Source: Candidatus Omnitrophota bacterium (lineage in GTDB: Bacteria > Omnitrophota > Gorgyraeia > Gygaellales > Profunditerraquicolaceae). From it: 64,000 bases of DNA. Positions within the stretch are counted from its first letter, which is position 1. Every line of letters begins with the position of its first letter. Positions 47,498-57,959 of this stretch are shown here, one piece after another. The translations under genes and the position numbers were made by a program. The stretch spans positions 138,133 to 202,132 of the forward strand of contig QZKH01000002.1 in NCBI GenBank assembly GCA_003598025.1. The letters are read 5' to 3'. A model generated the notes under the pieces. It was given only the letters and a program-made list of their open reading frames with translations. It searched no databases and was not told the origin of the DNA.

Positions 47498-47730
47498 AGA
47501 GGTAAGCCGATAAAGGCAAACTTCCGCTTTGTAAAAGCGGGCGCAGAGTTAGCGCTTGCGCATCGAAAGATAAGGACCTCGCACTTTGTGCGAGCTCGCC
47601 AGACTTAAGGTTATAGTTGGCGAGGCAAAGCCACAGACCTAAACCCGCTTTGGAGGAAATGGGTAGGGTAGCTGGGTTGCCGAAGGACGGTAGAGCCAGA
47701 GAGTACCTCTGGCCTTTATCGGCGGTTTTT
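47498..47730 (+). ncRNA. Structured leader RNA with GEMM (c-di-GMP-I riboswitch)-like conserved segments, possibly tandem or insertion-bearing
   Basis: Closing helix CCGATAAAGG (47507..47516) pairs with CCTTTATCGG (47713..47722). Internal GGCAAAC plus a GNRA (GUAA) hairpin. GCAAAGCCACAGACCUAAACC and GGGUAGGGUAGCUGGGUUGCCGAAGG closely match the Vc2 GEMM-I segments GCAAAGCCUCCGGCCUAAACC and GGUAGGUAGCGGGGUUACCGAUGG, recalled from memory. Confidence 0.5.
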
Positions 47731-54405: not shown

Positions 54406-54792
54406 ATGAAAAGGATATTTTGTTGTTTTGTCTTGGTTATGTTTTTATGTTCTGTTATTTCCGGATGCGCACCGCTTATAGTCGGTGCCGCAGTCGGCGG
54501 AGTAGCTATGTATGCTGTCAGCAAAGATACGATCCAGGGAGAGACCGACCGGGACTATGATTCTTTATGGAATGCCGCGCTGCTGGTATCGCGCATACGC
54601 GGGAATATCAAGAAAGACGATTATATGAAAGGGTATATAGAGGCAGAGATTGATTCAAGCAGGGTCTATATCCGGCTTAGCAGGGTAACGAGCTCTACCA
54701 TTAAACTGCGGGTATCTGCGCGTAAATACCATTTTCCAAATTTAACATTAGCCCAGGATTTATTTGTCAGGATTGTCGAGGAAGCCAAGTGA
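54406..54792 (+). CDS. Hypothetical lipoprotein
   Basis: Lipobox ISGCAP. Size and topology similar to ORF 51050..51508. Confidence 0.4.
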   Translation: MKRIFCCFVLVMFLCSVISGCAPLIVGAAVGGVAMYAVSKDTIQGETDRDYDSLWNAALLVSRIRGNIKKDDYMKGYIEAEIDSSRVYIRLSRVTSSTIKLRVSARKYHFPNLTLAQDLFVRIVEEAK

Positions 54793-55487
54793 GCAATATA
54801 GCTAATTTTGTTACCTTCCTGAGCCTTTTTTGCGGTTTTTTCTCAATAGTCTTTTCGTTAGAAGGCCATTTTACTTTTGCCTGCTGGGCAATAATATGTT
54901 CAGTAGTATTTGACGGGCTGGACGGCAAAGTGGCAAGGTTCATATCTAAATCAAGCCCTTTGGGCAAAGAACTGGATTCTTTAGTTGATGTGATATGTTT
55001 TGGCCTGGCTCCGGCAATCCTGGGTTACATCTTTGTATATAGAAATTTTTTCATCTGGGCATTTGTTTCTTTATTCATATATCTTTCTTGCAGCGTTATG
55101 CGCCTGGCGATATACAACATCATTTCAGGCCAACGGCATAATAATTATTTCCTTGGCTTGCCTACTACTGCTTCAGGAGGCGTTTTAGCTTCGTTTATTT
55201 TGATATATAGAAGATATGCAGATGCGCCTGCGCCGGTAACATTTCTTTTTCTTGTGGTTATCCTTTCAGTGCTAATGGTCTCTAGGATAAAATACCCGAA
55301 TTTAAGCGCAATAAGAAAAATGACGGATAACTATGTGCGCCCTATTGCGGCAGTATTAATAGTTATTTTCTTGTTTTTAATATGGTTCTATCTGCGTTTT
55401 ACTGTATTCCCGGCTGAAGTAATCATATTTGTTATTTTCTCAGGCTATTTAATATTTTCTCCTTTTCTTTATAAGAAATTTGTGTAA
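54789..55487 (+). CDS. CDP-alcohol phosphatidyltransferase (phosphatidylserine synthase-like)
   Basis: DGxxAR...G...D...D motif in DGLDGKVARFISKSSPLGKELDSLVD. Confidence 0.75.
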   Translation: MSNIANFVTFLSLFCGFFSIVFSLEGHFTFACWAIICSVVFDGLDGKVARFISKSSPLGKELDSLVDVICFGLAPAILGYIFVYRNFFIWAFVSLFIYLSCSVMRLAIYNIISGQRHNNYFLGLPTTASGGVLASFILIYRRYADAPAPVTFLFLVVILSVLMVSRIKYPNLSAIRKMTDNYVRPIAAVLIVIFLFLIWFYLRFTVFPAEVIIFVIFSGYLIFSPFLYKKFV

Positions 55488-55495
55488 AATATATT

Positions 55496-55548
55496 AGTTC
55501 ATGGTTCATAGTTGATAGTTCATAGATCATAGACGATTATTCATAGAT
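55496..55548 (+). repeat. Direct GTTCATAG-type octamer repeat array immediately upstream of tRNA-Phe
   Basis: gttcatgg, gttcatag, ttgatag, gttcatag, atcatag ... ttcatag. Confidence 0.6.
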
Positions 55549-55549
55549 T

Positions 55550-55621
55550 GCCGAGGTAGCTCAGTGGTAGAGCGCAGCCCTGAAAAGGCTGGCGTGGGGA
55601 GTCCGATTCTCCCCCTCGGCA
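55550..55621 (+). tRNA. tRNA-Phe (anticodon GAA)
   Basis: Cloverleaf folded by hand: acceptor GCCGAGG/CCTCGGC, D arm GCTC-AGTGGTA-GAGC, anticodon stem CAGCC/GGCTG with loop CTGAAAA, T arm GGGAG-TCCGATT-CTCCC, discriminator A. CCA is not encoded. Confidence 0.85.
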
Positions 55622-55768
55622 CTTTTTTAAGATACAGGATTAATGTCTCCCCACGCCAAAAGGGGTGTGGGGAAAAAGTTTCCCCACGTTTGGGGGAGAA
55701 CAGTACGCCTGAGGCGGACGTTAGGAGGGGGCTTGCCCACTCCTAAGGAGTGAGTGTAAACGAACGAC

Positions 55769-55806
55769 GCGTGGGGGAGTCCGATTCTCCCCCTCGGCAC
55801 TTTTTT
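55769..55806 (+). other. Duplicated 3' half of tRNA-Phe (variable loop, T arm, acceptor 3' strand, T-tract)
   Basis: GCGTGGGGGAGTCCGATTCTCCCCCTCGGCACTTTTTT repeats tRNA-Phe 55592..55628 with one extra G. It lies 145 nt downstream of the intact tRNA, across a GC-rich hairpin-rich segment. Confidence 0.6.
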
Positions 55807-55859: not shown

Positions 55860-56609
55860 ATGTATAAAATAGTTTTATTGCGCCATGGTGAGAGCACTTG
55901 GAATAAGGAAAACAGATTCACCGGATGGACTGATGTGGACCTTTCGGATAAGGGCATTAAAGAAGCCGGAAAAGCCGGCCAGATCCTGAAGAAAGAAGGC
56001 TTTATTTTTGATATAGCTTTCACTTCTGTTTTAAAGAGGGCAATACGCACCTTGTGGATCGTCCTTGAGGAAATGGACCTTATGTGGATACCGGTTATAA
56101 ATTCCTGGAGATTGAATGAGCGGCATTACGGTTCATTGCAGGGTTTAAATAAATCAGAGATGGCTGCAAAATTCGGTGATAAGCAGGTTTTGATCTGGAG
56201 AAGAAGTTACGATGTCCCTCCGCCGCCTTTGGAAGAAAATGATGAACGTTCTCCTAAAAAAGACCCGCGTTACAAGGATATGGATCCCAAAGATATACCA
56301 TTGACAGAATGCCTTAAGGATACCGTTATCCGCTTTCTGCCATATTGGCATGAAACAATCGCCCCGTCAATTAAGTCAGGCAAGCGTGTTATAATAGCCG
56401 CTCACGGCAATAGCCTGCGCGCTTTAGTCAAATACCTTGATAAGGTTTCTGATGAAGAGATAGTGCATCTAAATATCCCCACTGGCATGCCTCTTGTTTA
56501 TGAATTAGATAAGGATTTAAAACCAATTAAGCATTATTATTTAGGAGACCCTGAAGAAGTAAAGAAAGCAATGGAGGCAGTAGCTGCCCAGGGTAAAGCT
56601 AAGAAATAG
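55860..56609 (+). CDS. gpmA: 2,3-bisphosphoglycerate-dependent phosphoglycerate mutase
   Basis: [10 protein letters not shown] catalytic-His motif and the dPGM fold. Confidence 0.9.
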
Positions 56610-57538: not shown

Positions 57539-57548
57539 GGAATTTATT

Positions 57549-57670
57549 AGTTCATAGTTCATAGTTGATAGTTCATAGCTCACTGAACGTATTGCGTATA
57601 GCGTAGTGCGTATGGTGCCCTTGTGACTAGCTGCTCCCCATTCTATGAACCATGAACCATGAACCATGGA
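57549..57670. repeat. Composite repeat region: direct GTTCATAG octamers, three GCGTAK units, then inverted CATGAAC repeats
   Basis: agttcatagttcatagttgatagttcatag ... gcgtatagcgtagtgcgtatg ... ctatgaaccatgaaccatgaaccatggacc. Confidence 0.6.
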
Positions 57671-57774: not shown

Positions 57775-57863
57775 GCCGGCGTAGCTCAGCTCCGACGTGC
57801 TCTTTTCATTCGCAGTCGGAGTCCCGACCTCCGTAGCTTGTTTAATTTGATGGAGCGTCGGGA
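57775..57863 (+). other. Aberrant tRNA-like / GC-rich structured element (no acceptable cloverleaf found)
   Basis: Begins GCCGGCGTAGCTCAGC (tRNA 5'-like) and contains a T-arm-like CGGAG-TCCCGAC-CTCCG. No consistent D or anticodon arms. 3' CGTCGGG could pair 6/7 with the 5' end. Confidence 0.2.
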
Positions 57864-57886
57864 TTGGTAGAACAGCGTATATCTAT

Positions 57887-57959
57887 GCCGATGTAGCTCA
57901 GTTGGTAGAGCAGCGCTTTCGTAAAGCGCGGGTCGGAGGTTCAAATCCTCTCATCGGCT
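57887..57959 (+). tRNA. tRNA-Thr (anticodon CGT)
   Basis: Acceptor GCCGATG/CATCGGC, D arm GCTC-AGTTGGTA-GAGC, anticodon stem GCGCT/AGCGC with loop TTCGTAA, T arm GGAGG-TTCAAAT-CCTCT. Confidence 0.85.

Follow-up and report, generated by a model that had tools for sequence, protein, structure and literature searches.

Why should an intact tRNA gene be followed, a short distance downstream, by a second copy of its own 3' part? The question is raised by a locus in a 64,000-nucleotide stretch of DNA, hereafter the window, which belongs to a metagenome-assembled genome (MAG) of the Omnitrophota. The gene in question encodes tRNA-Phe(GAA), and between it and the second copy lies a short, GC-rich segment, hereafter the spacer. 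The reading that we favour, with a probability of roughly 0.38, is that the 178-bp unit made up of the proximal repeat copy and the spacer represents the gene-less remnant of a mobile cassette, which would have recombined with the tRNA-Phe gene at the boundary between variable loop and T-stem by a nuclease-stimulated route. The features on which the argument turns, all of them on the forward strand, are the following.

55550 to 55622, +: intact tRNA-Phe(GAA), called by ARAGORN and by Rfam RF00005 (64.3 bits), with calls of 55550-55622 and 55550-55621.
55592 to 55628 (exact part 55596-55628), +: proximal copy X1 (repeat family D1), which runs from the end of the variable loop through the T-arm and the 3' strand of the acceptor to A73, with C and six T behind it.
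55629 to 55768, up to the distal copy, +: spacer, gene-less, about 60% GC and hairpin-rich, with no homolog found.
55646 to 55699, +: double-hairpin block seen in folding, with four alternating arms of TCCCCAC / GTGGGGA type, whose pairings 1:2, 2:3 and 3:4 are mutually exclusive.
55647 to 55658, +: CTCCCCACGCCA, which repeats 12 nt of the tRNA, TGGCGTGGGGAG (55590-55601, across the start of the repeat), without mismatch in inverted orientation, from the inverted-repeat search (I3).
55722 to 55745, +: hairpin TAGGAGGGGG-CTTG-CCCACTCCTA, seen in folding, whose core GGGGCTTGCCC is also found in the spacer of the tRNA-Gly of locus L108.
55748 to 55767, +: tandem-G·A hairpin capped by a GNRA tetraloop, GA-GU-GA-GU-GUAA-AC-GA-AC-GA, recognized in the sequence; RNAfold pairs GU with AC around GUAA.
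55769 to 55806 (exact part 55774-55806), +: distal copy X2, a tRNA 3' fragment without a matching 5' half, from the repeat search.

The two copies share an exact direct repeat of 33 nt (GGGGAGTCCGATTCTCCCCCTCGGCACTTTTTT; 55596-55628 and 55774-55806), and an exact repeat of this length at a distance of 178 nt is not a matter of chance. Towards its 5' side the repeat widens by GCGT, with an extra G in the distal copy, to 37 matching positions out of 38 (55592-55628 versus 55769-55806), which bears out the preliminary description of this DNA, where a 38-nt repeat had been reported at 55769..55806. The repeated segment starts at the end of the variable loop, includes the T-arm in full, the 3' strand of the acceptor stem and A73, and continues for 7 nt past the tRNA (the CTTTTTTT-run, CTTTTTT); its 5' boundary at the junction of variable loop and T-stem is sharp, and neither copy encodes CCA. 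The T-loop of this tRNA-Phe (55604-55610) reads TCCGATT, that is, with C at position 55, a position that is U (pseudouridine 55) in nearly all tRNAs. The same T-loop is present in all 40 metagenome loci retrieved with the tRNA 3' half, a result that speaks for its occurrence in many uncultivated lineages and not for its frequency, given that the search pattern itself contained TCCGATT; each of these loci holds a single copy, in every case within an ordinary tRNA. The distal copy was also considered as a second tRNA, tRNA-like or tmRNA gene and rejected, inasmuch as ARAGORN calls none and the Rfam tRNA model gives no match at E <= 10; a candidate acceptor partner for it, GCCTGAGG, requires a bulge and lies within chance expectation. 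That the whole arrangement is an artefact of assembly is scarcely credible: although the contig stems from a short-read metagenome assembly, the k-mers commonly used in assembly are longer than the 33-nt repeat, the contig extends over 305 kb with normal synteny on both sides, and analogous structures are seen in many independent assemblies.

Comparison with related genomes shows what the site looks like without the spacer. This is a comparison between lineages rather than strains, the PssA relatives being distant, at 50-61% identity (50-59% for the relatives compared at the unoccupied site), and the order pssA-tRNA-Phe is kept in L082, L087, L094, L102, L109, L129, L131 and L134 (designations of this form refer to the loci fetched for comparison). 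The tRNA-Phe of L094 and L109 is base-for-base identical to that of the window and is followed by a hairpin terminator, with neither spacer nor second copy; the spacer and the second copy are therefore an insertion specific to the lineage of the window, and the insertion polymorphism among related genomes on which the preliminary description had made its case depend is indeed present. In L109 and L131 the order is pssA-tRNA-Phe-cspA with nothing in between, and the site is thus unoccupied. Beyond this, the DNA lying 3' of tRNA-Phe is different in every sampled Omnitrophota lineage: PLD, AbiEii, HsdM and PIN genes in L129, 4 kb of open reading frames (ORFs) of no known kind in L134, other genes in L082 and L087, and, in L085 and L128, a prophage with a tyrosine integrase, CI/Cro-like genes and a diversity-generating retroelement (DGR), which begins after a 23-nt 5' fragment of tRNA-Phe. 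Since its content differs in this way across lineages, the position is a recombination hot spot. The prophage of L128 (10862-20708, its far end lying beyond the 10-kb flank) combines the integrase and CI/Cro-like genes with SLT genes and a DGR composed of bAvd and a reverse transcriptase. GpmA, taken as an alternative anchor, was uninformative for the locus, as none of the 80 loci in the genome-collection scan has tRNA-Phe beside gpmA. An island reaching from the proximal copy to a far copy beyond gpmA-yajQ was likewise rejected, no significant tRNA-Phe fragment being present downstream in the window, L129 or L134.

An insertion at a tRNA hot spot calls for the classical explanation to be weighed, namely that of an attL/attR scar, in which a phage or island with a tyrosine integrase would have entered tRNA-Phe in its T-loop region, with an attP copying the tRNA 3' half, and an internal deletion would have left about 145 bp of P' and P arms, in the manner of a cis-mobilizable element (CIME). 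Integrases that target tRNAs usually share with them an identity block stretching from the variable loop/T-arm as far as the tRNA 3' end, and the repeat of the window has this extent, with a few bases beyond; the tRNA is intact, relatives have empty sites, a tyrosine-integrase prophage occupies the same locus in L085/L128, and the extra core-like GTGGGGA/TCCCCAC copies of the spacer could be recombinase binding sites. The preliminary description, which had seen here the footprint of integrase-mediated insertion, is upheld by the layout, the empty sites and the hot spot, but not as regards the enzyme: the ORF list and tblastn with the L128 integrase reveal no integrase between the repeats or in the 64-kb window, and no attP-like or integrase-linked copy is found in viral, phage and plasmid collections. 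An integrase element at tRNA-Phe, such as had been suspected, does exist in L085/L128, but the L128 element breaks the tRNA at position 23, in its 5' part and not in its 3' half, and its junction is devoid of a hairpin module.

The spacer itself offers a second line of evidence. Between the exact copies it measures 145 nt (55629-55773), with about 60% GC against 41% GC in the window, and both hairpins quoted in the preliminary description, which had depicted the segment as made almost entirely of GC-rich hairpins, stand up to analysis, folding being better than in shuffled sequences by z = -3.9 for 55623-55773 and by z = -4.2 for 55640-55705. The only ORF that enters the spacer is a 60-aa frame starting inside the tRNA, for which a protein search returns only itself. 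Integrase-associated or other copies of the segment, which had been proposed as a means of recognizing its source, were found neither elsewhere in the 64-kb window nor in 134 related loci, nor yet in viral contigs or phage and plasmid collections. With the tRNA 3' half in inverted orientation, on the other hand, the spacer has 18 6-mers in common versus 3.5 expected, a figure that 0 of 2000 shuffles reach, and four of the six TCCCCAC/GTGGGGA heptamers of the whole 64 kb fall within 55594-55687. Direct tRNA copies show no enrichment (P about 0.2), and neither does the tRNA 5' half in direct orientation, for which reason a decayed tandem tRNA-Phe was rejected. The enrichment of inverted and not of direct copies of the tRNA 3' half means that the spacer is not leftover DNA of random make-up, nor a tandem tRNA in decay; in combination with the hairpins it also argues against arbitrary leftover phage DNA.

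Two explanations that dispense with a mobile element bear on this internal organization. In the first, a local replication error, by template switching or fold-back synthesis at the GC-rich T-arm palindrome, would have converted the tRNA 3' half (X) into the series X, rc(X), X, where rc stands for the reverse complement. The left half of the spacer does consist of inverted and direct partial copies of variable-loop/T-stem sequence, the repeats are 100% identical and no foreign gene is present; for its right half, however, some 70 nt long (55700-55768), neither the tRNA nor the rest of the window offers a source, and the tandem-G·A hairpin by the distal copy, which stops one base short of X2, recurs at unrelated tRNAs and hosts, as independent errors would not. 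We thus deem a replication error improbable. In the second, the segment would be a structured RNA with a function of its own in processing, termination or regulation, either as a 3' trailer of the tRNA or as a leader of gpmA. A GC-rich segment in an AT-rich genome that folds better than its shuffles would be in keeping with this idea, as would the lack of a canonical terminator or promoter between tRNA and gpmA, the tandem-G·A and GNRA hairpin, which is a typical RNA motif, and the mutually exclusive hairpin chain, which resembles an attenuator. Yet Rfam 15 has no match for it, not even a weak one (the best spacer matches score about 20 bits versus cut-offs of 58-71, and the analogous spacers at other loci are also without match), relatives manage with a plain terminator, and z is only -1.4 for the tRNA-like 3' part alone, all of which leaves a functional RNA highly improbable. 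In RNA folding, local hairpins (-75.6 kcal/mol) prevail over a long-range stem (-61 kcal/mol). Hammerhead, kink-turn, primer-binding-site-like and guide-RNA candidates (the last of TnpB or CRISPR-associated transposon type), were dropped for want of features at their core, such as CUGANGA, a bulge of 3 nt, a stretch complementary to the tRNA 3' end or a neighbouring effector gene.

The third line of evidence is that the layout recurs beyond the window. About 20 of the 131 tRNAs in the fetched loci have a partial self-copy of at least 12 nt within 400 nt, and the succession of a tRNA, a T-rich or AT-rich stretch, GC hairpins and a direct copy of the tRNA 3' part is found at the following genes.

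L090, tRNA-Pro: same layout, with a 64-nt spacer and a 40-nt copy.
L116, L003 and L122, tRNA-Pro: same layout.
L108, tRNA-Gly: same layout.
L102, L118 and L129, tRNA-Phe: same layout, with inserts of 45-53 nt.

Compared with L087, the insert of L129 is a clean 53-nt indel within otherwise alignable sequence. An inverted copy of the duplicated piece is present in other spacers as well (GTGGGACTTGAA in L003, GTGCCGA in L118/L129), and in L003, L108, L102, L118 and L129 a hairpin of the form stem-GA-(2 bp)-loop-(2 bp)-GA-stem stands 2-10 nt before the distal tRNA copy. This hairpin reads GTC GA GC GAAT GC GA GAC in L003 and CTC GA GC GTTA GC GA GAG in L108, and the one at 55748-55767 of the window is a doubled version of the same form. 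Its outer stems covary in L118/L129/L102 (TCCT/AGGA versus CTCC/GGAG), as read directly from the sequences, the MAFFT alignment of the three mini-insert hairpins having mis-aligned the loop. The proxy pattern [GA]AGCG-N(2-4)-GCGA[GA] occurs 27 times in about 0.78 Mb, and four of these occurrences fall inside such spacers, which add up to a few hundred bases; only this strict GA-GC-loop-GC-GA form is informative, a looser tandem-G·A search yielding 142 matches versus about 97 in shuffles. The right end of the window spacer has weak pairwise similarity, at a concordant position, to the spacers of L003 and L102.

This recurrence weighs on two of the explanations that invoke a mobile element. Spacers just as short (45-150 nt) and ending in the same motif are present at no fewer than five other loci, an outcome that random deletions of large elements would not bring about, and the distal copy of L122 ends inside the acceptor stem and hence is not a displaced native 3' end; with these points added to the lack of an enzyme, we regard the integrase scar as somewhat unlikely, yet still as a serious rival. 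A still-mobile miniature non-autonomous element might also be envisaged, in which spacer and tRNA copy would form the complete unit, the hairpins would be a folded target-mimicking site and the enzyme would be supplied in trans. The series X, rc(X), X recurs in the window, L003, L118 and L129, the 45-53-nt insert is patchy among tRNA-Phe lineages, with the clean indel between L129 and L087, and the outer stem of its hairpin covaries, as such an element would lead one to expect; nonetheless, vertical inheritance with loss by repeat slippage explains the patchiness equally well, the 64 kb hold one copy and the collections searched none, and no enzyme has been identified, so that a miniature element of this kind seems quite improbable.

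At several of the loci the hairpins and the tRNA fragment are accompanied by a small gene of the GIY-YIG nuclease family, and the layout thus occurs both with and without such genes. The ORFs of L093, L116 and L090 match PF01541 in Pfam with E values of 1e-13 to 1e-15, and ORFs of L125 and of L027, an Omnitrophota locus, are similar to them by tblastn. In L116, L093/L120 and L125/L126 an ORF of 82-86 aa lies between the tRNA and the partial copy, beside hairpins; in L090, within a tRNA cluster linked to 16S, the GIY-YIG ORF immediately precedes the duplicated tRNA-Pro; and in L027 the GIY-YIG-like ORF is placed between tRNA-Asn and an 8-nt tRNA 5' fragment, with two hairpins preceding it. The window has in common with L116, L090 and L027 that a tRNA is duplicated in part and that GC-rich hairpins mark the boundary of the fragment. 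Free-standing GIY-YIG homing endonuclease genes, such as SegB of phages T4/T6, are known to sit in tRNA clusters (PMC2330249, PMC13096335), and in phage T6 the SegB enzyme has been shown to cleave within tRNA genes and to bring about duplication of segments in a recombination-dependent manner (PMC13096335); such cleavage and homing are published for phage SegB only. The motif reported for it, RAWTSGAAC (PMC13096335), corresponds by our own reading to the T-arm.

Two further observations concern these and similar loci. The tRNA-Pro of L090 (minus strand, 4347-4460) lies within a perfect 19-nt inverted repeat, TAAAATTCTCTTAAAATAT / ATATTTTAAGAGAATTTTA, which would lengthen the acceptor stem of the precursor. 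A 20-nt palindrome, CCTGCCTGCCGGCAGGCAGG, recurs with close variants in different organisms, usually in or beside pseudo-tRNA-Phe copies; it is present in L093/L120, L125/L126, L112 (4203-4224) and L089 (3280-3300), and in L112 it interrupts a repeated unit as a clean insertion. This may be a tiny mobile palindrome.

How might such a cassette have produced the arrangement seen in the window? According to the reading favoured here, it would have brought along a tRNA 3' part of its own with a T-run behind it, and a single (Campbell-type) crossover in the shared sequence would have left an intact tRNA, composed of the resident 5' part and a 3' part, while displacing the second 3' copy 178 bp downstream. 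The cassette would be of the hairpin-capped type that is elsewhere associated with a small free-standing GIY-YIG gene, and a nuclease cut in the tRNA gene would have stimulated homologous recombination with the tRNA copy of the cassette; the nuclease gene would have been lost here, or may never have been present. The hairpin module that remains, with its inverted partial target copies, GC hairpins and tandem-G·A tetraloop hairpin, is probably inert now and may be transcribed as a tRNA trailer or gpmA leader. The expected empty-site junction would be tRNA-Phe joined directly to CTAAATACAC, and the expected circular junction would read GAACGAC-[repeat]-AAGATACAGG. We favour the nuclease-stimulated route because hairpins are likewise placed at the boundary of the fragment in the GIY-YIG loci, whereas the one integrase junction available does not share this layout. 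The closest structural matches are the hairpin-capped tRNA-fragment duplications, which are elsewhere found with GIY-YIG genes and not with integrases.

Several points weigh against this reading. A tblastn search of the 64-kb window did not find a GIY-YIG homolog, and a full-length cassette with the spacer of the window was not found in the sequences searched. The clearest GIY-YIG loci come from other phyla, of the candidate phyla radiation (CPR)-like kind; only L027 is from Omnitrophota, and its tRNA fragment has 8 nt. The spacer of the window and those of the other loci are weakly alike (P about 0.01-0.04 per pair), the likeness residing in the type and position of motifs and not in alignment. 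The extent of the repeat, finally, from the variable loop to the 3' end and beyond, fits an integrase of the T-loop type equally well.

Likeness to known systems is in each case partial. With the tRNA attachment sites of tyrosine integrases the locus shares the direct repeat of the tRNA 3' part, the preserved tRNA, the empty sites and a hot spot that houses the L128 prophage; it departs from them in that the would-be element has 145 bp, no integrase, an interior of target-derived inverted repeats and hairpins, and no attP form that could be found. CIMEs, described in Streptococcus, are att-flanked remnants of integrative elements that lack recombination genes and can be mobilized in cis; the unit of the window is similarly flanked by att-like repeats and devoid of a mobility gene. 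However, CIMEs are kilobases long and derive from known integrative and conjugative elements, whereas this unit is far smaller and no parent element was found for it. The GIY-YIG genes of SegB type have in common with our loci the association with tRNA genes and the duplication of tRNA-containing segments, as illustrated by the small ORFs at L116, L093/L125, L027 and L090, but the window has no GIY-YIG gene and the examples are bacterial chromosomal loci, not phage; to our knowledge, hairpin modules and partial duplications of single tRNAs have not been described for SegB. Integron attC sites and the attP of CTX phage also present direct copies of the target core at their ends and a pairing inverted copy (X, rc(X), X) within 40-150 nt that form an imperfect hairpin. 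Here, in contrast, there is no integron integrase, Xer-type context or cassette array, no IntI-type gene being apparent in the ORF list of the window, which was read without a profile search, and the long-range RNA stem is disfavoured; the similarity is one of resemblance only.

A second tRNA gene of the window, that of tRNA-Thr (57887-57959), has upstream of it, at 57775-57886, an arrangement that looks like the mirror image of the tRNA-Phe scar and that speaks for the cassette reading. At 57775-57877 lies a pseudo 5' half (GCCGGCGTAGCTCAG ... TTGGTAGAACAGCG) whose D-loop is interrupted by a double hairpin of 75 nt (CTCCGAC..GTCGGAG, TCCCGAC..GTCGGGA), and this double hairpin is enriched in inverted tRNA-Thr k-mers. 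The pseudo half has the acceptor GCCGGCG, as does the real tRNA-Thr of L131; the functional tRNA-Thr of the window, in contrast, matches L134, and a division of this kind is the signature of replacement by an incoming copy.

Further fragments of tRNA-Phe are seen in relatives. At the same hot spot, L087 has, 170 nt downstream of the tRNA, a 26-nt copy of its D-arm/anticodon-stem (4027-4052; 18 nt exact). In one Omnitrophota clade a 13-nt copy of the tRNA-Phe 5' end, GCCGAGGTAGCTC, precedes the gene, and is followed by a variable hairpin (e.g. TCCGCCA..TGGCGGA, the stems differing by locus) and then by GGATTCGCC...AAAGATTTA. The arrangement, which is either a conserved leader or an old scar of 5' type, is located as follows.

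L082, 3734 to 3791.
L087, 3733 to 3783.
L085, 3729 to 3782.
L097, 78 to 162.
L110/L127.
L112, 4242 to 4321.

The setting of the locus in the window is that of an ordinary, densely coded chromosome, and the relatives of its GpmA and PssA, like the window itself, belong to Omnitrophota MAGs. Its PssA protein identifies the contig as JAGUZT010000009.1 of MAG GCA_020060685.1, while for GpmA a look-up of the exact protein gave no record. The local order is pssA, tRNA-Phe, the spacer with the tRNA fragment, gpmA, yajQ, cspA (on the minus strand), tRNA-Thr and an MFS gene, and the features next to the scar are these.

54789 to 55487, +: pssA (CDP-diacylglycerol-serine O-phosphatidyltransferase), from its ORF, PF01066 and homologs; the synteny anchor upstream of tRNA-Phe.
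55495 to 55532, +: GTTCATA-type heptad repeats (repeat family D3) just 5' of tRNA-Phe, a possible promoter-region element.
55860 to 56609, +: gpmA, from its ORF and homologs; it starts 54 nt past X2.

A sigma-70-like match lies 5' of tRNA-Phe at 55512-55540. On the plus strand no promoter-like or terminator-like site is found between tRNA-Phe and gpmA, and their co-transcription is therefore possible. The heptads GTTCATA/GTTGATA occur upstream of both tRNA-Phe and tRNA-Thr (55495-55532; 57548-57578, plus strand; 57643-57664, minus strand), with 10 matches versus 0.17 expected in 64 kb, nearly all of them near the two tRNA genes; they may be a shared promoter or regulator site of tRNA genes, or element ends. 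Elsewhere in the window, a match to the c-di-GMP-I riboswitch at 47505-47684 scores 43.5 bits, above the gathering score, and spans 180 nt versus the 87 positions of the model, thereby carrying a large insertion.

A scar at a tRNA gene is, taken alone, a familiar kind of thing. What goes beyond the routine in the present case is that the leftover DNA is organized, that the same layout is met at several tRNA genes of unrelated uncultivated bacteria, and that a minimal GIY-YIG gene is enclosed in several of them. A bolder generalization, which we consider distinctly unlikely at present, would see in these loci an undescribed family of gene-less hairpin cassettes of 50-180 bp, residing at tRNA genes of Omnitrophota, CPR-like and other uncultivated lineages and composed of a replacement tRNA-end copy, an inverted copy of it and a conserved tandem-G·A tetraloop hairpin; together these parts would form a folded site that mimics the target and would be moved in trans by small GIY-YIG nucleases or another recombinase, with a specificity rewritten by changing the tRNA-derived arms. 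If the reading favoured here is true, the tRNA genes of these lineages would be subject to insertion by a class of very small homing cassettes, each duplicating a part of the gene it enters, and a route based on a nuclease and homologous recombination would stand beside integrases as a means of insertion at tRNA sites. It would also account for many of the 'tRNA fragment' annotations in MAGs, and would provide a simple sequence signature by which such cassettes may be searched for.

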